Assembly: GCA_964583675.1 (NCBI GenBank)
Contig: CAZOVH010000002.1
Coordinates: 2,602-66,601 of the forward strand
Source: an uncultured Candidatus Saccharibacteria bacterium
Lineage (GTDB): Bacteria; Patescibacteriota; Saccharimonadia; CAILAD01; GCA-016700035
Direction: 5' to 3'
Length of the DNA stretch: 64,000 nucleotides
The position numbers and the translations under genes are program-made. The notes under the pieces are model-generated. The model was not told where the DNA came from. It did no database searches and saw only the letters and a list, made by a program, of their open reading frames with translations. Each line of letters starts with the position of its first letter. Within the stretch, counting starts at the first letter, position 1. Positions 44,381 to 56,749 of this stretch are shown here, one piece after another.

Positions 44381-45102
44381 GCAGCTCCTTGTCTTCTACG
44401 CTGCAGCCAAAATGCTGAGAATAAGAACACAACGCCAAGCAAGAAGGCGGCTGCCAAGACGTAAGAAGTGCTGTTAAGGTTCGCACTAAAATCAAAAATA
44501 GGCCTTAAGACATAAAGTCCACCAACTATCAAAAACAAGATTGCTAACACAAATAATCGAATTTTTTTTGCAACGTCCTGAGTTCCCCACCCTTGTGCAA
44601 GAAAGCGAGCAGCAATCAAGGGTAAACTAAGATATTGAACCGCTGTAACGAGCTGATACCCTCGAGAAAAAGCAAACTCTATCTGCCAGGCCCCATTAAC
44701 ATACTGCATAATTACTGGGTTTGCCAGATTTTCCTGAACGGAAAACCACATGCCGATACAAATAACAATTGCATCCAGGGCCGCGACAACATACATAACA
44801 CCCTTGCGGTCTGGGAAATAGATACGAGCGACAGCCAACCAGATCCAGAACAACGCCAGAAATTGCAGAGCATCACCAATAATAGTAGCATACGTAAGCA
44901 GTATGCTTGTCTCAGGAACGACTAGTGGAGTAATTCCGTAGAAAACTAGTGAAAAAAAGAATGTGATGGCACTTAGACCAAAAAAAGTGTTCAGTAGATT
45001 AGGTCCACTTTTTTGAGACTGAAAGCTCTTATATGCCACAAAGGCTAAAAGTGGCAAAGCTACATACCAATGTATTGCATTAAGCGGAAGACGCATCTGC
45101 AT
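44377..45102 (-). CDS. hypothetical polytopic membrane protein (paralog of 43658..44380)
   Basis: Tandem paralog, 4-nt overlap with downstream gene. Confidence 0.5.
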   Translation of the reverse strand: MQMRLPLNAIHWYVALPLLAFVAYKSFQSQKSGPNLLNTFFGLSAITFFFSLVFYGITPLVVPETSILLTYATIIGDALQFLALFWIWLAVARIYFPDRKGVMYVVAALDAIVICIGMWFSVQENLANPVIMQYVNGAWQIEFAFSRGYQLVTAVQYLSLPLIAARFLAQGWGTQDVAKKIRLFVLAILFLIVGGLYVLRPIFDFSANLNSTSYVLAAAFLLGVVFLFSAFWLQRRRQGAA

Positions 45103-45133
45103 GGATTATAGCACTTATGCTTCCTAAATAAAA

Positions 45134-45209
45134 TGGAGCCCGCGAAGGGACTCGAACCCATAACCTACGGTTTACAAAACCGTTGCTCTACCAATTGAGC
45201 TACGCGGGC
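45134..45209 (-). tRNA. tRNA-Thr (anticodon UGU)
   Basis: Reverse complement folds: acceptor GCCCGCG/CGCGGGC, D-arm GCTCAATTGGTAGAGC, anticodon stem ACGGT/ACCGT loop TTTGTAA, T-loop TTCGAGT (one U-U mismatch in T-stem), CCA encoded. Confidence 0.75.
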
Positions 45210-45572
45210 TGGTGCAGCATCCTAGCCGAAGTTAGAACTTTGCTACTCAACTATTCTATAACCTAACCTGATATGGCGCAACAGATTATTTGTACCCCCT
45301 ACCCTTTCCTATATATTGAATGATATCTTTCAATTACCATTATCCTATATCGGTAAAGTAGACTAGCTTATTGTGTATGTTTTTATATGTAGTTGTGCTA
45401 AGTAGCCACTTTCATATTTTGTTATGTTTTGTTAGGTTTTTTGAGGTTATATGTGCCATACGTAATTGAGGATATTAATAATCAAAATAGATTGAAGATT
45501 AGAACTATATTCAAACTTGAAAGGTAGGTTGATAACAAGACTATCAATCATATCGCTATTCTAAAAGATACC

Positions 45573-45794
45573 TTACCTCTTAGAATTTTTTAGGGCATTT
45601 ATTTGCTTCTGCAAGCTTTCTAGCTCTTCTTTAATATTTTCAATATCATCCTCTATACTTTCCTGGTCACCACCAAGCAACCTGACTGCCTCCTCTAGCT
45701 TTACGTCTGCTCGTGCATTATTAGTGAGGTTTTGATCAGTTTTATATAGCCAAATAACCAATAAAACGATTACTACTGCCAATACGAACTCCAT
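45573..45794 (-). CDS. hypothetical small membrane-anchored coiled-coil protein (island cargo)
   Basis: N-terminal TM LAVVIVLLVIWLY then acidic coiled coil. Confidence 0.4.
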   Translation of the reverse strand: MEFVLAVVIVLLVIWLYKTDQNLTNNARADVKLEEAVRLLGGDQESIEDDIENIKEELESLQKQINALKNSKR

Positions 45795-45894
45795 TTAAAA
45801 CTCCTTTTTATTATGGGTACCTAATTGTAATCATCACTACTCAAACCTCATCCGTTGGTCAACTTCCATCTATATAATAACTACAGAGCCGTAG

Positions 45895-46461
45895 CTACAG
45901 TGCACTCTCCATAACTTTTAGCATTTCCTGCTGCTGGGTCGCAGTATAGTTGCTAGATACACGCAAAACTACATTACCATTCACCTTATAAGCGCCTGCA
46001 CTAATTGCCCCTGTCTGGAATTGTTCAAGATATTCACCCCTTGTTGCTGCATCTGCCCCAGAAGCAAATACTTCTATTGTGCCACCAGCATCTGTCCCAT
46101 AATTATCCTTACTGATGTCTATTTGGTTTCCATTCTCGTCGACAGGCTGATAGCCAGTACGTGTGTCATAGAAGCTCCCAGCGTATTGATACTCACCCTT
46201 TTTACCAAGTAAGTTGTTTGAGTCTGTAGCCTCAGTTACAACATAAACAGATTGAACTGTTGGGGTTTCAGCTTTTACTTTATCTAATACATCTTGTACT
46301 AATTCATTACCAGTCTTATTTTCTGCCTCGTTTTGAGTTTGATCTGTAGTTACAGAGCGAGGTTGCACGCTATTATTATTTGTATTGAAGTAGTACATCC
46401 CCGCGACCGCAGCTACAACTACCACCAAAACTACCACGCCTACTAGTACTTTCTTATTCAT
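45895..46461 (-). CDS. hypothetical secreted/membrane-anchored protein (island cargo)
   Basis: N-terminal TM/signal anchor VLVGVVVLVVVVAAVAGMYYF; Thr/Asn/Gly-rich ectodomain. Confidence 0.5.
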   Translation of the reverse strand: MNKKVLVGVVVLVVVVAAVAGMYYFNTNNNSVQPRSVTTDQTQNEAENKTGNELVQDVLDKVKAETPTVQSVYVVTEATDSNNLLGKKGEYQYAGSFYDTRTGYQPVDENGNQIDISKDNYGTDAGGTIEVFASGADAATRGEYLEQFQTGAISAGAYKVNGNVVLRVSSNYTATQQQEMLKVMESAL

Positions 46462-46562
46462 ACAACACTCCTATAATTTACAATTTCATTGCTTACTCTA
46501 TCATGCATGATTTTCTTTTCAAATATCTACTGCATTCTAATCACCAATATACTAAGGTCGAA

Positions 46563-47240
46563 TTAATATGACTCACAGCCATATCCATCTCCATCTCTAT
46601 CAAAGCGATGCTTATCGACACCGATAACAGTTACGCTGAAACCAATGTCTCCACAATCGAGATCGTATGAAACATTCGGGACACAGGGACTGTAGTTTGG
46701 ATCACAATTTCCCGCTGGTACTTGAGCTTTGGGCTGTGTCGCTGGCTGCTGGGTAACTGGGGCTGGCGGTGCTTGAGGAGTAGGAGTTGCAGCTGGCGTT
46801 ACTACAGCTGCAACCTTAGTACCCTTAGCAATACGCTTTACCGAGGGCTGCTCTACAATGACCTCACCTACTCTTTCTTTTTCTTCTTCAACTCCACCCG
46901 ATATTAGTACTCTATATGTAACTGCTTTCTTCCCTTCACGACCTTCCTGTAAAACTTTCGTTGTGCCTTCTTCTAGGTTCGAGTCATCTACTGTTTCAGT
47001 CGCATATCCAACTGTCTCGAAATCTGTATATTCCTTAAAACTATCTGGAGAAGACCCTGCGAACATACCTAGATAGAAAAGCATCATGATGGCAGACAAT
47101 ACGCTCAACGATACTTTTTGCCAAGTTGGCCGCAAAGACACGATCCATAAATACCAGAGAATAAATGGCGGGAAAAAGACGATCGCAGCTATGAACCCTG
47201 CAGGTCGTAAGTACCAAGGTCTTTTACTTTGAGCGTTCAT
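46563..47240 (-). CDS. membrane protein with G5 domain and C-terminal Excalibur calcium-binding domain
   Basis: Two N-terminal TM; G5-like LEEGTTKVLQEGREGKKAVTYRVL...VKRIAKGTK; Pro-rich linker; Excalibur motif DRDGDGYGCE. Confidence 0.55.
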   Translation of the reverse strand: MNAQSKRPWYLRPAGFIAAIVFFPPFILWYLWIVSLRPTWQKVSLSVLSAIMMLFYLGMFAGSSPDSFKEYTDFETVGYATETVDDSNLEEGTTKVLQEGREGKKAVTYRVLISGGVEEEKERVGEVIVEQPSVKRIAKGTKVAAVVTPAATPTPQAPPAPVTQQPATQPKAQVPAGNCDPNYSPCVPNVSYDLDCGDIGFSVTVIGVDKHRFDRDGDGYGCESY

Positions 47241-47953
47241 CTATCTACCTTTCCGTTACAGGTGTTTGCAGCCCAAAGCCCTCTAGTAGCATCTTTTGCC
47301 TGTTGCTCCAAGCTTATAAAATCATTTAGCTTAGCAGTAGGATATTTTCTGTACGCAAAAGCATAACCTTCCTCGACCATTACTGCATTGACTAAAGTTC
47401 CATCGGCTAGATATACATACCGCAACAAGCGACCGTATTTGTCTTTATCGCCCTGGCTCTCATCTACTACCAATACAACTGGCTTACCCTCTACGAGCTC
47501 TTTCATCTTGCGAGAAGCTTCAAACCCATAGCACTGCACTGGCTTCCGAGGATCTTTTGTCTCTGGAGTGTCGATTCCTAGCAACCTAACCTTATAGGTT
47601 ACGCCATCTGAGACCACTGTTATCGTGTCGCCATCCACAACGTTTTTGACGACCGCAGAAGAATCGGGCAGAGACTGATCAATTATCGCCTTGTCCTGCT
47701 TCTCTAAGACTTGGCTACTTGCCTCTTTCTCTAGACTAGCTATAGGTTGAGATGATATGGATTTATCATCTGGGGTTTCATATTCATCAGGGTCAGTAGT
47801 AAGAGAGCTGGCGTACAGTTGATTCATTTGAGCAACTTCTCTGGGTTGAAGCACAAAACTATACCATATGGTGTATAGTGTCATAACTAATATTAAGTGA
47901 AATACCAACATTAGCCATATTGTTGCTTTATGCTTTTTCCGACCTCGTGCCAT
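47237..47953 (-). CDS. membrane-anchored thermonuclease (staphylococcal nuclease homolog)
   Basis: N-terminal TM; SNase core VVDGDTITV...VRLLGIDTPE and downstream Arg/Glu/Tyr catalytic region. Confidence 0.75.
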   Translation of the reverse strand: MARGRKKHKATIWLMLVFHLILVMTLYTIWYSFVLQPREVAQMNQLYASSLTTDPDEYETPDDKSISSQPIASLEKEASSQVLEKQDKAIIDQSLPDSSAVVKNVVDGDTITVVSDGVTYKVRLLGIDTPETKDPRKPVQCYGFEASRKMKELVEGKPVVLVVDESQGDKDKYGRLLRYVYLADGTLVNAVMVEEGYAFAYRKYPTAKLNDFISLEQQAKDATRGLWAANTCNGKVDR

Positions 47954-48096
47954 TAATTGAATTCTACCCCTATATACTCAAATCGTATACTAAATGCGTT
48001 ATTGGTATAGCCACCCGCAGTTAAAGATACTCCTTCCGCTCCGCTTATATATAGACTGGAGGAGTAGCTATTAAGAGCTGCTGTGACGGGGGGTGT

Positions 48097-48582
48097 TCAT
48101 CTGCAGGTAGTTGTCCAGCCCCCAAACGGATTATAGGTGGAGTTACAGGTTGTGGACGGTACAGGTGATGGACTAGGCAAGGGTTGTAGTTGTAATGGAG
48201 CCGTGTAACTCGGTTGGGCTTGAGAAGTGCTGGTTGGTTTAGTGTTTGCATCATTTAGTAGCTGCCAGTAACCCTTCTTAAGGTCGGCCAGCTCCGTACC
48301 ATATTTGGCAATTAAATTATTCCTAGCATCCACTGTCTTTATTAATTGTTCGTTCTCCGCTGTCGCCTTTTCTTTTTCCGCAGTTATCTTAGATAGCTGG
48401 TCCAGTCCAGTCTTCTGGAGTCTGACAGTGTATACCGATAAACCCAACAAAGATACTAGTAATACATAAAAGCCGATCTGGTAAAATTTTGTTGTCCTGC
48501 TAGATTTTCTGGGATCCGAATTCCTTTTCAGCTCGGCAACTTCCGCCTCAAGTTTTTCAATATTTACTCGTTGGCCCTTCAT
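48097..48582 (-). CDS. hypothetical membrane protein with flanking coiled coils and Pro/Ser/Thr-rich Cys-pair tail
   Basis: Central TM FYQIGFYVLLVSLLGLSVYTV; heptad-rich segments; tail TTCNSTYNPFGGWTTTCR. Confidence 0.45.
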   Translation of the reverse strand: MKGQRVNIEKLEAEVAELKRNSDPRKSSRTTKFYQIGFYVLLVSLLGLSVYTVRLQKTGLDQLSKITAEKEKATAENEQLIKTVDARNNLIAKYGTELADLKKGYWQLLNDANTKPTSTSQAQPSYTAPLQLQPLPSPSPVPSTTCNSTYNPFGGWTTTCR

Positions 48583-48657
48583 AGCGCGTTCTCTCTAGTG
48601 CTTGATAAATGTAAATAAAAAATATTGGATATATACGACATTCGCATATGAACACTG

Positions 48658-49263
48658 CTACTCATCCAGCGACTCACTCAGCTTTTTTAACCCTTTTTTA
48701 TAGTATTTCATTTGGGTGTCTTGTGGCAGTTTTTGAATATCATCATCAGAGATATTAATTTTATTCACCTCTCGAAATCCTAGGCGAATAACGCTCATCT
48801 TCGCTAGGTCTTCATCGTTATGCGGACCGCTTTCTGTAGCAGTATTTTTCTTATCTATCAAGCCAGTCGAAGAGTTGCTAATACGACTCTTTGGCATCTT
48901 GGCTAACTGCTTGTTTTTATTGTAATACGCTACCCAACTAAGTAATGGCAATACCCAAATCGAGAAGCCACCCAAAAGAAATAAAATCATATTTGCTATT
49001 GCTGCAATGTTCTCCATCAGAGCTCGTGAATCAGCTGATTCACTACTATTTTGACCAAGTATAAAGTTGATTAGAGCATACAGTGCCACTGTAAGGCCAA
49101 ACATTATAAAAGGAGACCACAACCACCTATACATGCTGGTTACGAGCCTCTTTCTATCGGGTTGCATCTTAGAGAGTTGGCCAGCCGTGAAAGCCAGCTG
49201 AAACAATAAGAATATGTTTACGAAGAGCGCAACTATAATCATGGGGAAAGAGGAGTTTTCCAT
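48658..49263 (-). CDS. hypothetical multi-TM protein, short member of island paralog family (single C-terminal KLGF..VN..DI.K.P...KYY..GL repeat)
   Basis: N-terminal membrane domain and C-terminal repeat both align to 50565..51647. Confidence 0.5.
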   Translation of the reverse strand: MENSSFPMIIVALFVNIFLLFQLAFTAGQLSKMQPDRKRLVTSMYRWLWSPFIMFGLTVALYALINFILGQNSSESADSRALMENIAAIANMILFLLGGFSIWVLPLLSWVAYYNKNKQLAKMPKSRISNSSTGLIDKKNTATESGPHNDEDLAKMSVIRLGFREVNKINISDDDIQKLPQDTQMKYYKKGLKKLSESLDE

Positions 49264-49323
49264 GCACTGAATTATACACCACCAAGATCTAAGCGCTGAA
49301 TGCTATCTATCTACAAACAGCTT

Positions 49324-49677
49324 TCACTTGTTGATCTTTTTGCGATACTCGATTTGGTGATATAAAGCTACCAGAGTATAAAAAAACCCACCGATAAGGA
49401 AAGCGAAGCCGCCTGCCCAGAAAAATGAGATTACAATTGCAATTGCAAAAGCACTTAATCCAACCTTCAATTCCCTATTAGCTTTTTCCTTAATTAATGA
49501 AGGATTATCCGTTTCTTCTTTTTTCGTTTCATTGGTGACAATACTAATATACTCAAGGGCCTTCTCTTTTGATCCAGCCTGTTTCTTAATTGCTCTGACT
49601 ATGCTTCCTTTTGAATAAAACTGTGATTTTAAACTTTTTATTTTCTCTTCGATCTCTGGTGGCACTGATTGATTCAT
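49324..49677 (-). CDS. hypothetical protein with C-terminal double TM hairpin
   Basis: Soluble Lys/Glu-rich N-domain then GLSAFAIAIVISFFWAGGFAFLIGGFFYTLVALY. Confidence 0.4.
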   Translation of the reverse strand: MNQSVPPEIEEKIKSLKSQFYSKGSIVRAIKKQAGSKEKALEYISIVTNETKKEETDNPSLIKEKANRELKVGLSAFAIAIVISFFWAGGFAFLIGGFFYTLVALYHQIEYRKKINK

Positions 49678-49694
49678 GATGTAATCCTTACCTC

Positions 49695-50120
49695 CTATTC
49701 ACCCTTACGAAATGTAGAAAACTCACCCAGGTTTGCCAATATATCTCTATCTATCGATTCGATAAATGCACCGAACATCTTTTTATCATATCCGTAGTAT
49801 TCAGACTCTACTACCAACGTAAGGTCCTCAGGGTCACCATCATCCTTTGACTCTTCATAAAACCATTTACTATATACTGCTTGATTAACCGTATTTATTG
49901 CATTAAAAAAATCTTTACTTCCTAGCGCCTTAGGGTTGAAGCCCGACCATCTCATCGTGACAGTAAGCATATCGCCATTAAAATTTAATAGATAGGAAGC
50001 TCCACGGTCTCGCTCAGCAAAATACAATGATCCTTTATTTTTGCCTATATCTTCGGTTTCAAAACCTAAAAACTCCATGTGTTCAAGAATCTTGTCTTTG
50101 TTGCTTGCCTTATCTGTCAT
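49695..50120 (-). CDS. hypothetical cytoplasmic protein (weak YbjN-like resemblance)
   Basis: Only soluble protein in cassette; start chosen at MTDKA to avoid overlap; family call tentative. Confidence 0.35.
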   Translation of the reverse strand: MTDKASNKDKILEHMEFLGFETEDIGKNKGSLYFAERDRGASYLLNFNGDMLTVTMRWSGFNPKALGSKDFFNAINTVNQAVYSKWFYEESKDDGDPEDLTLVVESEYYGYDKKMFGAFIESIDRDILANLGEFSTFRKGE

Positions 50121-50568
50121 TACCTTGTCCTTTCTTAATCGTGTCCCAGTCACGCAATTTTTCACTTGGGCGGATAGTTTTTAGATTATCATTTTTTACA
50201 GCTTCGGAAGAGTGCTTTTTGCTGGACGCCTGAAAGTCATCTTGTCCCTCTAAATAATCTCTACGCTCGTCCCCTGCTAAATAACTTTCAATAGCCTCCG
50301 CCTTAAGCTTATTAACACTAAATATGATCATTATCCCCGCCCATAAGCTACCATACATGAACGTAGTAGAAAATGCAGAAACGACTATTAGTACAAGGCT
50401 AGACCATACAATTGGGACTATAATAACTGGCCAATTCATTTTTTTTATCTCCCCCGTTCTAAGAAGTTTCCTTCTAAGGGGCAGTGTTGCAAATATACTT
50501 CCCAATATATTTGACCATAAGAATAAACCGACGACCCAACCAATAAAACCTATTAATAGACCTGTCAC
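50110..50568 (-). CDS. hypothetical membrane protein (3-4 TM) with charged C-terminal tail
   Basis: ORF with hydrophobic N-terminal two-thirds. Confidence 0.4.
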   Translation of the reverse strand: MTGLLIGFIGWVVGLFLWSNILGSIFATLPLRRKLLRTGEIKKMNWPVIIVPIVWSSLVLIVVSAFSTTFMYGSLWAGIMIIFSVNKLKAEAIESYLAGDERRDYLEGQDDFQASSKKHSSEAVKNDNLKTIRPSEKLRDWDTIKKGQGNDR

Positions 50569-51647
50569 TTCAGCATCCTCAATCCAGCTTGATAATATTT
50601 ATCTAGTTCCTTTTCTGGCATTTTTTCGATATCTTCAGTAGCTACAGAAAAATTATTCACATGCTTAAATCCCAGTTTAATTATTTCTAGCTTTACCCGT
50701 AACTCATCTCCACTGATCTTTTCTTCATTTGTCGGGCTTAGCGCGTGTTTTCTATAGTTACTAACCCTCATGCCTTCTTCCAGGTATGATTCTAGCTCTC
50801 TCTTGGAAAGATTTTCTAATACCTCTGGAAAAACATTCTTTACATTGTGACGATGCGAATAACCGCGCCTAATTAGCATTTCCTTCTCATCCACTGTCAA
50901 GCCTGCAGCCGCTGCCCTATCCAGCTTAGCTACTCTCTTTTCAAGAGCTGAGGCATCCAATTTTTTGATTTTATGAACTGAGTGTATGGCAATTATCGTC
51001 CACACTAAAACTATCAAGGGTATAATTCCTCCCGAAACTAGAATTGTAGACATTAACAAAATCCACAGTTTCGCTAGCAAGAATTGATTATTGCTGCGAA
51101 TTGAACGTCCAAGCATTATGAAGTAGGTTCCTAGAAGCAAGATAATAATAAATGCAACTAAATAGCTCGGCAAATCACCCCCTTCAGGACCTGAAAGCAA
51201 CAATAACCCTGACGATATAATAATTATTGCAAACCCCATTTGATAACTTCCATCTCCCGCCCGAGTTATCAAACGTAAATAACGCTCCACCTTTTTTTCT
51301 TCTGGTGATAATGCCCTTATAGGCTGTTTCAAGGGCTCATTCAGTTCACGTAGTGCCTGGTAGGTTACATACCAGCTATAAAACGGCAATATAAATGCCG
51401 CTATGAAGCCCAGGAGAAACAGTATTGTGTTCAGAATTGTGCTGATGTTCGCACCCAAATCACTATCAGCATCAATGACCGCATTGGTGAAGCCATATAA
51501 TAACAAGCAAGACAAAACGATAATTATTGGAAGCCAAAGCCAGAAGTAAGCCTTTTTCAATCGTTTTCGCTGAATTGGGTTTTTCTTCTTCTGTACTAAA
51601 GACCTAAACTCTAGAACTACAAGGATTATCAGATTTATTAAAAACAT
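50565..51647 (-). CDS. hypothetical multi-TM protein, long member of island paralog family (two copies of C-terminal ~35-aa repeat)
   Basis: RKRLKKAYFWLWLPIII... aligns with 48658..49263 N-domain; repeats GYSHRHNVKNVFPEVLENLSKRELESYLEEG and GFKHVNNFSVATEDIEKMPEKELDKYYQAGL. Confidence 0.5.
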   Translation of the reverse strand: MFLINLIILVVLEFRSLVQKKKNPIQRKRLKKAYFWLWLPIIIVLSCLLLYGFTNAVIDADSDLGANISTILNTILFLLGFIAAFILPFYSWYVTYQALRELNEPLKQPIRALSPEEKKVERYLRLITRAGDGSYQMGFAIIIISSGLLLLSGPEGGDLPSYLVAFIIILLLGTYFIMLGRSIRSNNQFLLAKLWILLMSTILVSGGIIPLIVLVWTIIAIHSVHKIKKLDASALEKRVAKLDRAAAAGLTVDEKEMLIRRGYSHRHNVKNVFPEVLENLSKRELESYLEEGMRVSNYRKHALSPTNEEKISGDELRVKLEIIKLGFKHVNNFSVATEDIEKMPEKELDKYYQAGLRMLK

Positions 51648-51749
51648 TCTAGTTATTCCTACATCTAACTATATACCCAGTAAACCAAGCATACAATTAT
51701 ACTTGATATGGTGTTAAGACCAGCCTTAAGCTGATATCATTGCTTCGAG

Positions 51750-52340
51750 ATGACTCCACAGCCCAATAAACAGTATATGCCAAGCTTAAAGTACAGGAGC
51801 GATTGGCACAGGTATTTGGTCTTCAATGACCCCGAGTTTATTAATGCTTATAATTCGATTGATCAAGACGATAAGCAAAGTATGTATCAGAAATCTTGTG
51901 CATTCGAGCTGCTTGCCAGATCTTTCGCACTCACGACTTCCGATATGAACATTTTTAAATTATCTAAATCTATATACATAGAGGGTAAAACCACGGGAGC
52001 TAACTTAGAGTTTGATCCGATGTCTGGAAAGTATTCAATTGTTTTTCAGCCAGATACTCCTCTAGTCGAAATACAGGATGAGCTAAACAAATTTAAAAAC
52101 TTGAGAGACTCACTCTTCCCGATTAAGCAAACTAAGCGAAAGCCACCACACGACCCTGCACTTATATATGCCATCTTCAAAGCTCGGCAACAAAAGCTAA
52201 CTTTCAATAAAATTTTCGAGCTATATGAGAACAGCACACTGCCCTACTATGGCGGCGACAATCAAAAGTATCAGAGCCGTGAAGATCTCGAGAAGTACTA
52301 CGACAACAATAAGCCAATAAGAACTTTAAACAAATCTTAG
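51750..52340 (+). CDS. hypothetical protein (196 aa), first plus-strand gene of island replication/integration module
   Basis: Clean ORF, Lys/Tyr-rich, no family recognised. Confidence 0.4.
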   Translation: MTPQPNKQYMPSLKYRSDWHRYLVFNDPEFINAYNSIDQDDKQSMYQKSCAFELLARSFALTTSDMNIFKLSKSIYIEGKTTGANLEFDPMSGKYSIVFQPDTPLVEIQDELNKFKNLRDSLFPIKQTKRKPPHDPALIYAIFKARQQKLTFNKIFELYENSTLPYYGGDNQKYQSREDLEKYYDNNKPIRTLNKS

Positions 52341-52478
52341 ATTGGTTATACAACTAGTTTTCCACCTGCTTTAATGGCATCTGAGATGACATTGGTAGTC
52401 CCCTGAGAAATAGTCATCTCCTCGGGGGACTACCTATTAACAATAGGTATCAGACGTAGCCTAGCCACGGGGAAAGCT

Positions 52479-52688
52479 ATGAAACTTAGCGATGATAATA
52501 TCACTCAGCTTCAACACATACTGAAAAGCCAAAACGATATTGATGCAACCGACTTGGAGGCTCAGCAAATTGGCCTGGCAGTAATGCGCTTCGTGTTAGC
52601 CAAGCATCTAAATACTTTCAAGGATACCTCGGAGGAAAAGAGAGATGAAAATAACGCCGTTGAGCATCCTACAAAGCCAACATATTGA
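52479..52688 (+). CDS. hypothetical small acidic protein (69 aa) overlapping start of primase gene
   Basis: ORF only; could be regulator/excisionase-like, unverified. Confidence 0.25.
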   Translation: MKLSDDNITQLQHILKSQNDIDATDLEAQQIGLAVMRFVLAKHLNTFKDTSEEKRDENNAVEHPTKPTY

Positions 52689-54765
52689 GTACCAAGAAAT
52701 ACAAAACGAGTTAGTCATTAAATGTCAGTTTAGTGATTGCGACGATGACAGTAGGGGCAAAGAAGCTCATATGTATGTAAATAAAGATTCAGGCGCATAC
52801 TACTGTCATAAGTGCTATGCAAAGGGCGGCTTGCAAGATCTATTGGAGCACTTCGGTATAGATGCTAAATCCATTGGGAGTGATCCTAAGAATGACCTGA
52901 AACAAACCGCAATCAAATACCACCTCGGCCTGCCTCCGTATATAAAAGATTACTTAGTGAAAGATAGGCTTCTTCATGATGAAGAGATCAATGATCGATT
53001 ACTTGGTTTTATGGTAGACCAATCTGGAGTTGGCTGGATTACCATTCCTGTGTTTAGTCAGCATAACGATATATTATTCATCAAAATGAGAAAAGACCCA
53101 TCGTTGCCCAATTCCATTAGCCCCAAATATAAGTCGTCTGGTGGATCAGCAGCCATATATAATGCGCAAATCATCAATGATCAGCCAGAACGACTAGTTA
53201 TCTGTGAGGGTGAATTTGACTGCATGCTTTTGTCATCCCTTGGCGTTCCAGCGATTAGCTCAACTGCTGGCGCAGGTACCTTTAAGGATCAGTGGGTAGA
53301 CCAACTGTCATTCGTACGTGAGTTCTATGTAATTATGGATAATGATGACCCAGGAAGAAAAGGAGCTGAAGCCTTAATTCAGAAGCTACATGCAGCGCAT
53401 CCCGACGCATCGATTATGAACGTCCAGTTGCCGTCCGTTTTAGGGAAAGGTGGAGATATTACTGACTTCATCAAGCATGAACTTGGAGATATCGATGATT
53501 TACTCAGTCCAGATAGTAAGCTTGTGAGTCTCGCAGCTGGATCAAGACCGATTAACCCCTCCTCTTTTAGTGAAATGAGTCTAGATGAGCTAGTTGAGAT
53601 ATTATCCATGACTATCAAATTCGATCGAGAAAACAAACTTATAACTTTTTTCGCATGCCTATCAGCTTACACCCTCTCAGATCAGATCAATGTTAGCTAT
53701 AACGCACCAAGCTCATCGGGCAAAACATATATCGTCAACGAAGTGGCTAAACTATTTCCAGATGCCGATAAAATCGAATCAAATGGTGCAAGCCCAACTT
53801 CCTTTTTCCACGGTTCAGGCAAAATCGATGAGAAAAGAAATGCAAAAATCATTAACCTCTCTCGGAAAATCCTTATCTTCTACGAACTCCCAAACCCAAT
53901 ACTGCAATCTAAACTGCGATCCGTTTTATCCCATGACAGCTGGGAGATAAATCACCGTATTACCAATAAAGACAAAAAGGGTGCCCATCGAGTCGAACAT
54001 ATAATTCTTGAGGGCTTCCCTGCCACTATATTTTGCTCTGCCAATATGCGGCTAGACGAACAAGAAGCAACCAGAGCAATACTCTTAAGCCCTGAAGTAA
54101 GCCAGGAGAAGTTGAGCGAAGCTGTGCATCTACAAGCTCTAAAAGCCGCAAACCCCGAAAAGTACCATACAGACCTTGACTCCGATCCAAGACGGAAGTT
54201 ACTTAAAGATCGCATACTCGCGATCAAGCGTGAGCGAGTAGATCATGTAACTCTAAACCCCTCAAGTACTAGAGAAATAGAAAAACGTTTTATGGCGAGC
54301 TTCCATAGATTTAAGCCAAGACACATGAGAGATGTTGGGCATTTGATACAACTCATTAAAGCTATTACCCTACTGAATATTTGGCACAGACAAGATTCTG
54401 ATGGGAAAATTGTCGTGTCACAAATAGACATTGAACAGGGATTAAACCTTTGGATGCACTATCGAGAAAGCCAGGATCTTAATATTAGCCCTATTGCCAC
54501 CTCATTCTACAAGCAATATATATTACCAGCATATTTAGAAAAACGTGGAGACAATTATGAGTTCAGTGAAGGTGTCACACGGCAAGAAGTATGTAAATAC
54601 TATCTCAAAATTGAGCGCGCTCCATACAACGATGAGTACCTAAGAAAACAAATCCTGCCCCAGCTTGAGAATAGCGGACTAGTATCGCAAGAACAGCCGC
54701 AGAGCGGCGATAAGCGTACAAAGCACATCATTCCTAAGTGGTTCTTCCGCGATGAAGATATATAG
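52645..54765 (+). CDS. DnaG-type primase (CHC2 zinc finger + TOPRIM) fused to C-terminal P-loop NTPase domain (replication initiator of the element)
   Basis: Zinc finger CQFSDC...YYCHKCYAKGG; TOPRIM LVICEGEFD and IMDNDDPGRKG; Walker A NAPSSSGKTYIV in C-terminal half. Confidence 0.7.
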   Translation: MKITPLSILQSQHIEYQEIQNELVIKCQFSDCDDDSRGKEAHMYVNKDSGAYYCHKCYAKGGLQDLLEHFGIDAKSIGSDPKNDLKQTAIKYHLGLPPYIKDYLVKDRLLHDEEINDRLLGFMVDQSGVGWITIPVFSQHNDILFIKMRKDPSLPNSISPKYKSSGGSAAIYNAQIINDQPERLVICEGEFDCMLLSSLGVPAISSTAGAGTFKDQWVDQLSFVREFYVIMDNDDPGRKGAEALIQKLHAAHPDASIMNVQLPSVLGKGGDITDFIKHELGDIDDLLSPDSKLVSLAAGSRPINPSSFSEMSLDELVEILSMTIKFDRENKLITFFACLSAYTLSDQINVSYNAPSSSGKTYIVNEVAKLFPDADKIESNGASPTSFFHGSGKIDEKRNAKIINLSRKILIFYELPNPILQSKLRSVLSHDSWEINHRITNKDKKGAHRVEHIILEGFPATIFCSANMRLDEQEATRAILLSPEVSQEKLSEAVHLQALKAANPEKYHTDLDSDPRRKLLKDRILAIKRERVDHVTLNPSSTREIEKRFMASFHRFKPRHMRDVGHLIQLIKAITLLNIWHRQDSDGKIVVSQIDIEQGLNLWMHYRESQDLNISPIATSFYKQYILPAYLEKRGDNYEFSEGVTRQEVCKYYLKIERAPYNDEYLRKQILPQLENSGLVSQEQPQSGDKRTKHIIPKWFFRDEDI

Positions 54766-54948
54766 GAATGCATGGTGGGTACCCTTACCGAAAGATAAAT
54801 AAACGGATATAATGGCTATGTTGAAACACCCAGTAATTATGCGTGAAGTCTTTTTATTTCCGCTCGTTAAGGGCGGCTTGGTACGGAAAGTGGCTTTGTG
54901 CTACTGGATGTTTCAACAGCCGAGCCGTCCTTTTTGATTGGAGAAATT

Positions 54949-56586
54949 ATGAGTAATTTAAAGTATATCGCTTATGTACGCAAGTCTACCGAAGATGAAG
55001 AACGGCAAGTTCTATCCAGAGCTGCTCAACGAGACAAGATTAATGAAATATTCGGCGAACTTACTATAATTGACTACCTCGATGAGAGTAAAAGTGCGTT
55101 TGAGCCAGGGAAAAGGCCTATTTTTGATCAAGTTTTGGCCAAGTTAGATTCTGGCGAAGCTGATGGGATAATTGCTTGGCATCCAGATCGACTTTCACGA
55201 AACGCCATAGATGCTGCTGCCATAAGCCATCGTATTAGCAAAGGAACAATTAAGGATCTGAAGTTCGCGAGCTTCAGCTTTGACAACTCACCAGAAGGCA
55301 TCATGATGCTTCAGATGACGATGTCTCAATCTCAATACTTTTCAGCAAAGCTGAGTAAAGATATTAGACGAGGCAATGAAAAAAAGCGTCAGCTAGGTGG
55401 CTTAACAGGAAAAGCTATGGAGGGCTACCTGAATGATCGCATGAATAAGACAACCATTATTGATCCAGCTCGATTCCCGTTAATCCGTAAGGCGTTTGAC
55501 CTATATTTAACTGGAGAATATAGCGTCCAAGCAATTCTACGTATACTCAATGATGAATGGGGCTATACGACCCTTAAGCGAAAAAGGACTGGAGGGGGCC
55601 CACTCTCTCGAACATCTCTATACAATATATTTCGAAACGTGCGATACGCTGGACTAATACCAGACCCTTACGACCCAGAAAAGCTGTATAAATCTGAGTA
55701 TCCAGCAATGATTACGATTGAAGAGTATGACCAAGTTCAGCTACTGCTAGGTAGAAAAGGACTTCCTCGATTGGTAGCAAAGAAAGAATTTGCACTACGT
55801 GGGCTAATTCGCTGTGGTGAATGTGGATGCAGCATTACCGCTCAAACCAAAAAGAAGAAAATGAAGTGCGGGACGATAAAGCCTTATACGTACTATCATT
55901 GTACTGGTAAACGACCTGGCTGCAGCCAAAAAAGTATATATGTAAGAGAAGAGCAGCTATATAAGGAGCTGACAATTCTACTAGATAAATATCAGCTAGA
56001 CGAACGTCTATTTGACTGGGCCCTAGAGGCCTTTAAGGATATGGCGGCAGCTGAAGTGACTGAAAGAAATCATGTGCAATTGATACAGGACAATAAAATC
56101 CATGATACTCAACGTCAACTGGATAAACTGCTAGATTTAGCAACCAAAGAACTTATAACTACTGAAGAATATTCACTGAAAAGCGAACAGTTGAAAGCAG
56201 CACTAAATACACTTCAGAAAGATCAAACAAATACTGCAGCCCGCACTAAGAACTGGTATGAGTTTGCTACAAATACCCTACACACACTCTGCGATGCTGA
56301 AAATAGGTTCATTAACGGAGATATAGTGGTAAAGAAAGAAATACTACTGGCTATTGGTCAGAACCCTACCTTATTGGATGGAAAATTGCATATCACACCA
56401 GTAAAATGGTTGAATCCAGTCGCAAACTCAACTGAGCATATTACAAAGGAGCTTAATAAGGTTAGAACCTTATCTCTACAGATGCAAAAAGCCTCCGAAG
56501 AGGCTGTTCGTCATCAATGGTGCAGGGGGAGGGATTCGAACCCCCGAAGGCATAAAGCCGACAGATTTACAGTCTGTTGCGTTTGA
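54949..56586 (+). CDS. large serine recombinase (resolvase/invertase catalytic domain + recombinase domain + zinc ribbon)
   Basis: N-terminal YVRKSTEDEERQ with catalytic Ser, DGIIAWHPDRLSRN; Cys4 CGECGC...CTGKRPGC; SD GGAG 7 nt before ATG at 54949; 3' end overlaps tRNA-Tyr on opposite strand. Confidence 0.8.
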   Translation: MSNLKYIAYVRKSTEDEERQVLSRAAQRDKINEIFGELTIIDYLDESKSAFEPGKRPIFDQVLAKLDSGEADGIIAWHPDRLSRNAIDAAAISHRISKGTIKDLKFASFSFDNSPEGIMMLQMTMSQSQYFSAKLSKDIRRGNEKKRQLGGLTGKAMEGYLNDRMNKTTIIDPARFPLIRKAFDLYLTGEYSVQAILRILNDEWGYTTLKRKRTGGGPLSRTSLYNIFRNVRYAGLIPDPYDPEKLYKSEYPAMITIEEYDQVQLLLGRKGLPRLVAKKEFALRGLIRCGECGCSITAQTKKKKMKCGTIKPYTYYHCTGKRPGCSQKSIYVREEQLYKELTILLDKYQLDERLFDWALEAFKDMAAAEVTERNHVQLIQDNKIHDTQRQLDKLLDLATKELITTEEYSLKSEQLKAALNTLQKDQTNTAARTKNWYEFATNTLHTLCDAENRFINGDIVVKKEILLAIGQNPTLLDGKLHITPVKWLNPVANSTEHITKELNKVRTLSLQMQKASEEAVRHQWCRGRDSNPRRHKADRFTVCCV

Positions 56587-56604
56587 CCGCTTCGCTACCC
56601 CTGC
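56518..56604 (-). tRNA. tRNA-Tyr (anticodon GUA), type II with long variable arm
   Basis: Reverse complement: acceptor GCAGGGG/CCCCTGC, anticodon loop CTGTAAA, long variable arm CGGCTTTATGCCTTCG, T-loop TTCGAAT, CCA encoded. Confidence 0.85.
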
Positions 56605-56614
56605 ATGCTTGATC

Positions 56615-56689
56615 TGGAGCCCAAACCGAGGATTGAACTCGGGACCTCTTCCTTACCATGGAAGCGCTCTACCACTGAGCTATTTGGGC
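56615..56689 (-). tRNA. tRNA-Thr (anticodon GGU)
   Basis: Reverse complement: acceptor GCCCAAA/TTTGGGC, D-arm GCTCAGTGGTAGAGC, anticodon stem CTTCC/GGAAG loop ATGGTAA, T-arm CCGAG-TTCAATC-CTCGG, CCA encoded. Confidence 0.85.
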
Positions 56690-56749
56690 GTGCATTTACT
56701 CCGAGTAAACAGAGCCTAGTCTATCATTTTTGCTCATGATTTTCAATGC

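Follow-up and report, generated by a model that had tools for sequence, protein, structure and literature searches.

The window analyzed here, 64,000 nucleotides of contig CAZOVH010000002.1 (assembly GCA_964583675.1, positions 2,602 to 66,601, forward strand) from an uncultured Candidatus Saccharibacteria bacterium, holds an insert of 11,308 bp within a cluster of three tRNA genes. The element is real, precisely delimited, and mobile, and "integrative plasmid of Saccharibacteria" describes it best; the probability that the insert represents, in its integrated state, a plasmid-like integrative element of 11.3 kb belonging to a Saccharibacteria (Patescibacteria) genome is put at about 0.85. Its only recombinase is a large serine recombinase (LSR) whose open reading frame (ORF) spans the attachment site of the element and, as the original prediction had noticed, runs into tRNA-Tyr.

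Boundaries of the Insert

ARAGORN identifies four tRNA genes in the window, three of which lie on the minus strand at the insert locus; all three are confirmed by Rfam, in agreement with the original prediction. The insert extends from 45210 to 56517 (equivalently, 45218 to 56525) and is bounded by an 8-bp direct repeat, TGGTGCAG, found by reading both ends (45210–45217 and 56518–56525); a generic repeat search found no long att direct repeats at the two ends. The octamer is the antisense of the last 8 nucleotides of tRNA-Tyr, comprising acceptor end, discriminator, and CCA (the tRNA strand reads CTGCACCA), and the insertion restores an intact tRNA-Tyr. The size of about 11.3 kb initially proposed thus holds, and the coordinates given with it, 45210–56604, are too long, since tRNA-Tyr is chromosomal except for its last 8 nucleotides. 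A consensus scan places a promoter-like site at 56746–56718, ahead of tRNA-Thr(GGU). The G+C content of the insert is 0.33–0.38 in the first ~360 bp and ~0.37–0.45 elsewhere, against 0.44–0.51 in the flanks. The features of the two junctions are as follows.

45134–45209, minus strand: tRNA-Thr(UGU), found by ARAGORN (tgt) and Rfam; chromosomal flank and B arm of attB and attL
45210–45217: attL core TGGTGCAG, the displaced original 3′ end of tRNA-Tyr, abutting the 5′ end of tRNA-Thr(UGU)
45218–45265: P′ arm of attP and attL, with conserved GAAGTTAGAAC at 45228–45238 and ATTCTA at 45253–45258 (TAGAAT on the minus strand)
45218–45572: AT-rich non-coding border (G+C ~0.33–0.38), holding the left arm (45292–45316) of the inverted repeat IR-1
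56458–56517: P arm of attP and attR, inside the LSR ORF, with AAGGTTAGAACC at 56458–56469 and TTCGTC at 56507–56512
56518–56525: attR core TGGTGCAG, the 3′ end of the regenerated tRNA-Tyr
56518–56604, minus strand: tRNA-Tyr(GUA), found by ARAGORN (gta) and Rfam; integration target and B′ arm
56615–56689, minus strand: tRNA-Thr(GGU), found by ARAGORN (ggt) and Rfam; first gene of the tRNA operon

The Empty Site and the Free Circle

Empty sites were searched by scanning one-genome-per-species contigs with the neighboring RluD-like protein. Two related Saccharibacteria metagenome-assembled genomes have an empty attB: L012 (CAYVVS010000010, RluD 93% identical) and L014 (JAUPVH010000047, 80%). Both carry Thr(ggt), Tyr, and Thr(tgt) as one uninterrupted cluster, packed within 260 bp downstream of a single promoter-like site; after it come the same genes as in the window, coding for proteins of 241 and 240 amino acids (aa) and for a histidine kinase. 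The empty site reads, without interruption, GAGCTACGCGGGC, TGGTGCAG, GGGGAGGGATTCG. The window junctions are this site split exactly at the octamer, and the BLAST breakpoints overlap by those 8 bp; hence the length of 11,308 bp. The analogy originally drawn with thrU-tyrU-glyT-thrT of E. coli is loose, the native order being Thr(GGU)-Tyr-Thr(UGU). The search also returned a contig with an RluD 93% identical (L013) that ends inside tRNA-Thr(GGU). A separate look-up, with the 241-aa protein of the left flank, gave three Logan contigs (L009–L011) that all break inside tRNA-Thr(UGU) at 45192; these four contigs are uninformative on occupancy.

Two side observations concern the cluster itself. In its native state base 1 of tRNA-Thr(UGU) comes immediately after the CCA of tRNA-Tyr, with no spacer (L012, 12293–12455; L014, 7487–7649; attB halves of the window), and all three tRNA genes encode CCA. 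Given the zero spacer, one RNase P cut would make both the 5′ end of this tRNA-Thr and the 3′ end of tRNA-Tyr. The three Logan contigs (k = 31, different samples; window 45102–45192) end at the identical base, 17 nucleotides short of the 5′ end of tRNA-Thr(UGU), which probably reflects a k-mer common to tRNAs of other organisms rather than an att site.

The free form is found in L292 (GCA_041910035.1, JAYRRQ010000030.1), a contig of 11,490 bp with a terminal overlap of 141 nucleotides, i.e., a circle of 11,349 bp. It is collinear with the insert at 93–95% identity (84% in one variable cargo segment), its alignment blocks with the window meet exactly on TGGTGCAG, and its attP differs at 1 nucleotide in 150 from the attP reconstructed from the window. 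It encodes the LSR P0246, which, like P0241, belongs to the 90%-identity cluster of the window LSR; both end in WCSILAEVRTLLLNYSI(A/S), the very tail predicted by joining 56517 to 45210. In conclusion, attB, attP, attL, and attR are all documented and are related by one reciprocal exchange. Further circles are L007 and L008, which come from two unrelated sequencing runs and hold the same 7,010-bp sequence in circular permutation, and L006, of 6,984 bp, so that circles were assembled independently in four datasets. Contigs were counted as circles only if they showed a terminal overlap, because an attP-type LSR tail can also arise from tandem elements, as in L093 and L094; such a tail alone was thus rejected as a sign of a free circle. 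The empty site, the mapping of attL and attR (here to the 8-bp core), and the circular excised form, all suggested at the outset as checks, are therefore available from public data, the last both as L292 and as the smaller 7-kb relatives L006–L008.

The Serine Recombinase and Its attP-Spanning Reading Frame

54800–54948, plus strand: LSR leader, with TATAAT at 54808–54813, the inverted repeat IR-2 at 54819–54835/54902–54918, and a long hairpin followed by a T-run
54949–56586, plus strand: large serine recombinase, 545 aa from the likely ATG; the ORF is open from a GTG at 54898 (562 aa)

By all domain criteria this protein is a large serine recombinase. It matches Resolvase (PF00239, E = 2.6e-20), Recombinase (PF07508, E = 1.5e-8), and Zn_ribbon_recom (PF13408, E = 2.5e-8), the last two above their curated cut-offs, and it also matches the integrase family PHROG 95. 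R28, K29, S30, R98, S100, and R101 (ORF numbering), which include the catalytic serine and arginines, are invariant in 27 homologs. The LSR would catalyze integration and, with a separate directionality factor, excision; a conserved 69-aa protein of the element (see following) is a candidate for such a factor.

The last 22 codons of the LSR (WCRGRDSNPRRHKADRFTVCCV) are the antisense of tRNA-Tyr. The tryptophan codon TGG, which is the antisense of CCA, is followed by 21 codons, and the residues through W541 are encoded by the element, so that 541 of the 545–562 residues are kept on integration. In the circle, the P′ arm encodes an alternative tail, SILAEVRTLLLNYSIT, followed by a stop codon. 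The ORF thus crosses attP, as it does in the circles L292, L006, and L007: the free form ends in W-CSILAEVRTLLLNYSIT and the integrated form in W-CRGRDSNPRRHKADRFTVCCV, each before a stop codon. As a consequence, integration exchanges the last ~20 codons. The attP arms show an imperfect dyad, TTCGTC ... GCCGAA/GACGAA, centered on the middle of the octamer, which fits what one would expect of LSR half-sites. The motifs AAGGTTAGAACC at −60 and GAAGTTAGAAC at +19 were also considered as symmetric half-sites and rejected, as they are direct rather than inverted repeats with unequal spacing, and the TTCGTC/GACGAA dyad is better.

The DNA of the leader (window 54800–54948; L292 1193–1353; L007 4830–4990; L006 2047–2205) is more conserved, with 85% column identity, than the proteins that follow it, which are 63–67% identical. 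The 17-nucleotide arms of IR-2 co-vary, and the hairpin with its T-run also pairs with the GGAG ribosome-binding site. These features suggest a tight control of integrase expression, and the leader, which matches no Rfam family, looks like an undescribed attenuator or translational-control leader.

A Family That Targets the 3′ Ends of Many tRNA Genes

There are 2,753 LSR homologs at E ≤ 0.001, and those with a named source are from Saccharibacteria/Patescibacteria. The 120 best, 56–98% identical to the LSR of the window, share the C-terminal motif ...KVRT.PQQIQKASEEA.R..W and diverge after the W: 74 have tRNA-antisense tails, recognizable by a (D/E)SN motif that comes from the T-arm, 11 have attP-type tails (..VL.EVRT.LL..), 30 end no more than 5 residues later, 3 carry tails of other kinds, and 2 are unanchored. 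The family survey covers 80 loci from Joint Genome Institute (JGI) metagenomes. An antisense tRNA gene overlaps the 3′ end of the LSR gene in 51 of them, and 14 isoacceptors are involved: Gln (ctg 9, ttg 4), Trp (8), Asn (7), Tyr (5), Gly (tcc 3, ccc 2, gcc 2), Ser (tga 3, cga 2, gct 2), Met (2), and Arg (tcg 1, gcg 1). ARAGORN finds a genomically encoded CCA at the junction in 49 of these 51 loci. Ten integrated relatives in which both ends are available, 7.0–11.5 kb in size, have direct repeats of 6–9 bp that always start at TGG. The homologs of the recombinase, along with more than 1,200 relatives of the replication protein, thus belong to related elements of Saccharibacteria/Patescibacteria, a point on which the original prediction had made its reading depend.

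Outside this group, only distant relatives of the LSR were found. Those in the phage collection (50,697 records) and in the plasmid collection are at most 28% identical, its NCBIfam scores are far below the XisF and Ccr cut-offs, and a protein scan of IMG/VR yields none. The hairpin motif described below did match 115 IMG/VR stretches; none encodes a member of the family, and they were rejected as generic terminators. No paper describing such elements in Saccharibacteria/Patescibacteria was found, within the limited reach of the literature and collections, which is not proof of absence. The label "undescribed type" given initially to the element can be kept as far as these sources reach.

Some loci deserve separate mention. 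Two or three P′-arm remnants, or tandem elements, occur at one tRNA in L221 (1780–2470), L272 (1320–3850), and L093/L094, where behind the recombinase lies another element that has a recombinase of its own. Multiple junctions at one tRNA indicate repeated integration into attL, with decay of older copies. In L092 (3110–11704 of an 84-kb contig), a more distant LSR relative (56% identity) with an attP-type tail has as neighbors a homolog of the coupling protein of type IV secretion systems (T4SS), a Replic_Relax protein, an HTH/ImmA pair, and then SNF2/GmrSD/DUF1156/DUF499 defense-like genes; this clade of integrases may also be used by elements of a conjugative type. The best LSR matches in the phage collection, GenBank MT837677.1 (6.4 kb) and MT836653.1 (9.3 kb), are very small unannotated contigs from human feces labeled "Bacteriophage sp." (26–27% identity over 85% of the length), and they might be analogous small integrative circles, not phages.

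A Putative Antisense Terminator and the Split tRNA Operon

56485–56505, minus strand: intrinsic-terminator-like hairpin, AGCCTCTTCGGAGGCT followed by TTTTT, antisense within the LSR codons for QKASEEA

This hairpin starts 12–13 nucleotides downstream of the CCA of tRNA-Tyr, on the tRNA strand. It is called terminator-like by the consensus scan and has a fold z-score of −4.3 relative to shuffled sequences. In the close LSR subfamily (identity of at least ~54%), the hairpin lies at a constant 13 nucleotides from CCA, whatever the target tRNA, and in distant subfamilies a hairpin and T-run are found at the same place with unrelated stems, e.g., AGCCGCGAAAGCGGCT, AGACGCAATTGCGTCT, GGACTCTTCTGAGTCT, and AGAGGCGAGAGCCTCT. 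Covariation was tested on an ungapped alignment of 50 sequences with a six-pair stem. Pairing in the stem reaches 77%, compared with 68% in shuffles (none of 500 reaches 77%) and 36–54% with slid partners; double-sided changes number 24, with 12 expected, and T is found at columns 30–32 in at least 90% of the sequences. The hairpin imposes paired amino acid changes on the LSR (KASEEA to KDSEES).

The hairpin and its U-run would terminate the Thr(GGU)-Tyr transcript 13 nucleotides after CCA. Such a terminator would shield the LSR gene from antisense read-through of the tRNA operon; the simplest interpretation is that the element brings along a terminator for the tRNA that it targets. Alternatively, the hairpin may be a protein-binding palindrome, which would leave the T-run unexplained. 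After insertion, tRNA-Thr(UGU) lies 11.3 kb from the promoter-like site of the operon and behind the putative terminator. Its transcription might be re-supplied either by an outward promoter in the P′ arm or by read-through from the cargo operon; the consensus scan finds no terminator-like site on the minus strand between 45573 and 45210. The candidate promoter is a minus-strand box, TTG-N3-N17-TAGAAT, present in the window, L292, L006, L007, and L237, which ends ~43 nucleotides before the core. In the window it consists of TTGCGC (45281–45276) and TAGAAT (45253–45258) and points out toward tRNA-Thr(UGU).

The Replication Protein and the Plus-Strand Module

The ORF map of the insert shows a plus-strand block (196, 69, 706, and 562 aa, the last being the LSR) and a minus-strand block of cargo genes. 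The plus-strand block includes the primase/P-loop replication protein (Rep) of the original prediction.

51750–52340, plus strand: 196-aa ORF with no family match, at the variable first position of the module
52391–52437: palindrome with a perfect 17-bp stem (ATTGGTAGTCCCCTGAG...CTCGGGGGACTACCTAT) and a 13-nucleotide spacer, between the 196-aa and 69-aa ORFs
52479–52688, plus strand: conserved small protein of 69 aa, directly upstream of Rep in all relatives examined
52645–54765, plus strand: Rep, 706 aa, a DnaG-type Zn-ribbon and Toprim primase fused to an MCM-like AAA+ helicase
45292–45316 and 54758–54782: complementary arms of IR-1, a 25-nucleotide inverted repeat

Rep is made of a DnaG-type primase (residues 1 to ~300), which matches Toprim/DnaG families and also phage primase PHROGs, and of an MCM-like AAA+ part (~300 to 706) with the Walker A motif APSSSGKT and a C-terminal winged-helix region. 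The latter matches no Pfam family, including MCM. An AlphaFold2 model of this domain built from 36 sequences (predicted local distance difference test, pLDDT, 88; predicted template modeling score, pTM, 0.89) has MCM subunits as all of its top 50 PDB matches in Foldseek (E down to 1e-9, probability 1.0, query template modeling score, TMq, 0.4–0.55). The best viral fold matches of Rep include, besides fusellovirus ORFs, the helicase portions of primase-helicases from phages. Judging from the modeled fold, the helicase is an MCM-like AAA+ protein and not a canonical MCM, its N-terminus being a DnaG-type primase instead. The C-terminal 400 residues are 53% identical to the whole of a 437-aa protein whose gene immediately precedes that of the LSR in the 7-kb circle, and in 33 of the 80 metagenomic loci this domain is likewise encoded right before the LSR. 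Relatives either lack the primase or have it as a gene of its own; more than 1,200 proteins are related to the fusion of primase and helicase, and the most informative annotation among them is "toprim domain-containing protein". From this replication gene set, and from the circles in four datasets, autonomous replication of the circle by means of the primase and MCM-like helicase is inferred.

The core gene upstream of Rep encodes 60–72 aa across relatives, and its product in the element is a candidate regulator or directionality factor. The palindrome at 52391–52437 could, from its sequence, be an origin, an operator, or a terminator, and the AT-rich border, non-coding as initially described, is a candidate regulatory or origin region. 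In the circle, the LSR gene and attP lie between the arms of IR-1, which fall at opposite ends of the integrated element. IR-1 has counterparts of 24–32 nucleotides, at corresponding positions, in L292 (1150–1173/2995–3018) and L007 (4740–4771/6671–6702). Each arm lies just upstream of a promoter-like box, and IR-1 may be a shared operator.

Cargo Genes

The block of cargo genes described initially consists of ten minus-strand ORFs (45573–51647).

45573–45794, minus strand: membrane/coiled-coil protein, 73 aa
45895–46461, minus strand: N-terminally anchored or secreted protein, 188 aa, no family match
46563–47240, minus strand: membrane-anchored G5-domain protein, 225 aa (G5, E = 7.9e-17), with a Pro/Thr-rich linker and a weak Excalibur-like C-terminus
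47237–47953, minus strand: membrane-anchored staphylococcal-type nuclease (SNase), 238 aa (E = 9e-27)
48097–51647, minus strand: six ORFs (161, 201, 117, 156, 152, and 360 aa), mostly predicted membrane proteins, no family match

Two of the membrane proteins, of 360 aa (50565–51647) and 201 aa (48658–49263), are paralogs: each has a two-helix membrane module at its N-terminus and, at its C-terminus, the motif LGF(K/R)xVN...DI(E/Q)K(M/L)P. The segment 49282–51647 (compared with L001 3225–5625 and L292 6989–9400) is the most variable between copies, with 77–84% identity versus 92–97% in the rest of the element, which suggests diversifying selection or cassette exchange. Relatives likewise encode SNase and G5 proteins, together with a trypsin-like protease and, by a weak match, a metalloprotease. 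In line with the original prediction, no capsid, terminase, or conjugation genes were detected: Pfam, PHROGs, NCBIfam, and PADLOC give no match in the element for capsid, terminase, portal, tail, relaxase, or T4SS. A PHROG "virion structural protein" match to the 188-aa ORF (E = 0.005) covers the signal-anchor region and is not credible. PADLOC finds no defense system, only a nuclease domain matching a candidate model. The envelope and secreted proteins (nuclease, G5, membrane) may benefit an epibiotic host or the element; to relate them to the epibiotic lifestyle or to the exclusion of incoming DNA is speculation.

Integrative Plasmid, Satellite, Mobilizable Element, or Fixed Island

The element might also be a phage satellite of the PICI (phage-inducible chromosomal island) or P4 kind, or the remnant of a very small temperate virus, the circle being the induced form, packaged by a helper phage. 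Known satellites combine an integrase, a primase-helicase, and small regulators in 7–11 kb, and so does this element; moreover, its LSR and primase match PHROGs, Rep has viral fold matches in fusellovirus ORFs and phage primase-helicases, and most of the cargo ORFs have no family, so that capsid-interaction genes could be hidden among them. Yet neither Pfam nor PHROGs gives a terS, capsid, portal, scaffold-remodeling, or packaging match, several ORFs being unannotated; IMG/VR holds no relative by DNA motif or protein, none exceeds 28% identity in the phage records, and the 7-kb circles have only ~8–9 genes, several of them for envelope proteins. Such an origin is unlikely, and of the two terms of the original prediction, "plasmid-like or satellite-like", the first is the better supported and the second the weaker. 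Considerably less probable still is an integrative mobilizable element (IME) moved by conjugation or type IV machinery encoded elsewhere, through an unrecognized oriT. In its favor are the T4SS-type and Replic_Relax neighbors of the LSR relative in L092 and the existence of serine-recombinase IMEs in Firmicutes (PMC5704250). Against it, no relaxase, coupling protein, or T4SS component was found in the element or in the 7-kb circles, and a primase-helicase of its own is more typical of a replicon. That the insert is an old genomic island, fixed and no longer mobile, has the lowest standing of all. It would account for the presence of the same element at the same site in L001, a lineage ~89% identical with flanks ~87–92% identical to those of the window, and for a G+C content only modestly below that of the flanks; but the equally distant L012 (~89%) has a clean empty site, the free circle L292 is 93–95% identical, the LSR ORF, with its catalytic residues, and the two att sites are intact, and the LSR (97% identical between the window and L001) is more conserved than the flanking chromosome. 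The empty sites, the circle, and the homologs exclude the outcome that the original prediction named as fatal to a mobile element, namely a region long fixed and without empty-site variants.

Several points weigh against an integrative plasmid, or against parts of the mechanism proposed for it. Neither an origin, a partition system, nor copy-number information was found for the element, and no directionality factor was identified. The circular contigs are circular molecules (or tandem copies), which falls short of proof of autonomous replication. The window copy, known as an insert only, is presumed excisable from its sequence, the circle coming from L292, and the same-site copy in L001 means that part of the distribution may be vertical. 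The sites attP and attB have only the 8-bp TGGTGCAG in common, their arms being unrelated, and the cleavage dinucleotide is not locatable by sequence. The outward promoter fails the scan criteria in the window, where its −35 box matches at 3/6 positions (3–5/6 across the set), and its −10 box overlaps the conserved codons YS(I/T) of the attP-form tail, so that its conservation could be at the protein level; its function as a promoter is putative. Finally, the putative need to rescue tRNA-Thr(UGU) hinges on its single-copy status, which is not visible in the window. For an integrative plasmid, natural transformation and phage hitch-hiking are both possible means of passing from cell to cell.

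Significance

A broader proposal, which we regard as tentative and rather doubtful as a whole, is that these elements reveal an unrecognized bacterial integration strategy. A clade of serine integrases would use the universal CCA/acceptor end of tRNAs as its crossover, with attP inside its own ORF; the tail would report the free or integrated state and could bias directionality or stability; the opposite-strand terminator and the outward promoter would make insertion into tRNA operons non-polar; and the elements would be natural plasmids and integration vectors of Patescibacteria.

The Islander work states that only tyrosine-family integrases are known to target tRNA genes (tDNAs; PMC4383910), a working rule that is contradicted here; since island-finding pipelines rest on it, they would miss a whole class of elements. 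The family also gives a bacterial, serine-recombinase counterpart to the archaeal integrases that carry attP within their own gene (PMC7253208). The Patescibacteria/Saccharibacteria form a large and barely tractable branch of bacteria, for which a natural replicon of 7–11 kb, with an integrase and a base-exact attP and attB, is a starting point for shuttle and integration vectors. The LSR clade is a natural series retargeted to at least 14 tRNA genes, useful for studies of specificity evolution and for recombinase engineering. The terminator-like hairpin antisense in the LSR coding sequence, kept by covariation (KASEEA vs. KDSEES), is a clear case of dual coding.

Comparison with Known Systems

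The LSR has the three domains (resolvase, recombinase, and zinc ribbon) of the phiC31, Bxb1, TP901-1, A118, CcrAB/CcrC, XisF, and TndX recombinases. With the serine integrases of phages and of integrative and conjugative elements it shares unidirectional integration of a circle, a very short shared core, and imperfect-dyad att arms. It differs from them in targeting the 3′ ends of tRNAs instead of sites inside protein-coding genes, in having attP inside the recombinase ORF, and in a shared core of 6–9 bp instead of 2 bp, although the true crossover here may be 2 bp; and the LSRs of phages and plasmids in the collections are at most 28% identical to it. According to a review of IMEs, serine-recombinase elements insert within, and disrupt, dispensable genes (PMC5704250).

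PICI and P4-like satellites resemble the element in size (7–15 kb), in an integrase at the end by att, in a primase-helicase replicon, and in having a divergent regulatory region and accessory cargo. The element differs by the absence of detected packaging or capsid-redirecting genes, by a serine rather than a tyrosine integrase, and by its absence from viral collections, and we know of no helper phage for these elements. As in the tRNA-gene islands found by Islander, an intact tDNA, an island bearing an integrase, and a displaced tDNA fragment are present; the fragment here has only 8 nucleotides and the integrase is not a tyrosine recombinase, and Islander-type searches would therefore not report the element (PMC4383910).

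Other parallels are archaeal. The small integrated elements related to pTN2/pT26-2, and those of thaumarchaea (PMC6972569, PMC6563490, PMC2926602), also combine an MCM-like helicase with a tRNA-targeting integrase. Here, in contrast, the host is bacterial, the primase is of the DnaG/Toprim and not of the archaeo-eukaryotic type, the integrase is a serine recombinase, and Rep, with no sequence-level match to the Pfam MCM family, is recognized as MCM-like by fold only. The SSV-type (type I) tyrosine integrases of archaeal viruses and plasmids, such as SSV1, pT26-2, and pTN3, likewise have attP within the integrase ORF (att is translated) and tRNA targets, and the elements are likewise small and integrative. 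Both the pT26-2 family, with 18 tRNA genes targeted (PMC7253208), and this one, with at least 14 isoacceptors, have switched among many tRNAs. SSV-type integrases with attP in the ORF are tyrosine recombinases "so far restricted to archaea" (PMC7253208), whereas the present protein is bacterial and has serine recombinase domains only. Their "suicidal" integration breaks the gene into two halves, both inactive; here the swap is confined to the tail, and all catalytic and DNA-binding domains remain whole.

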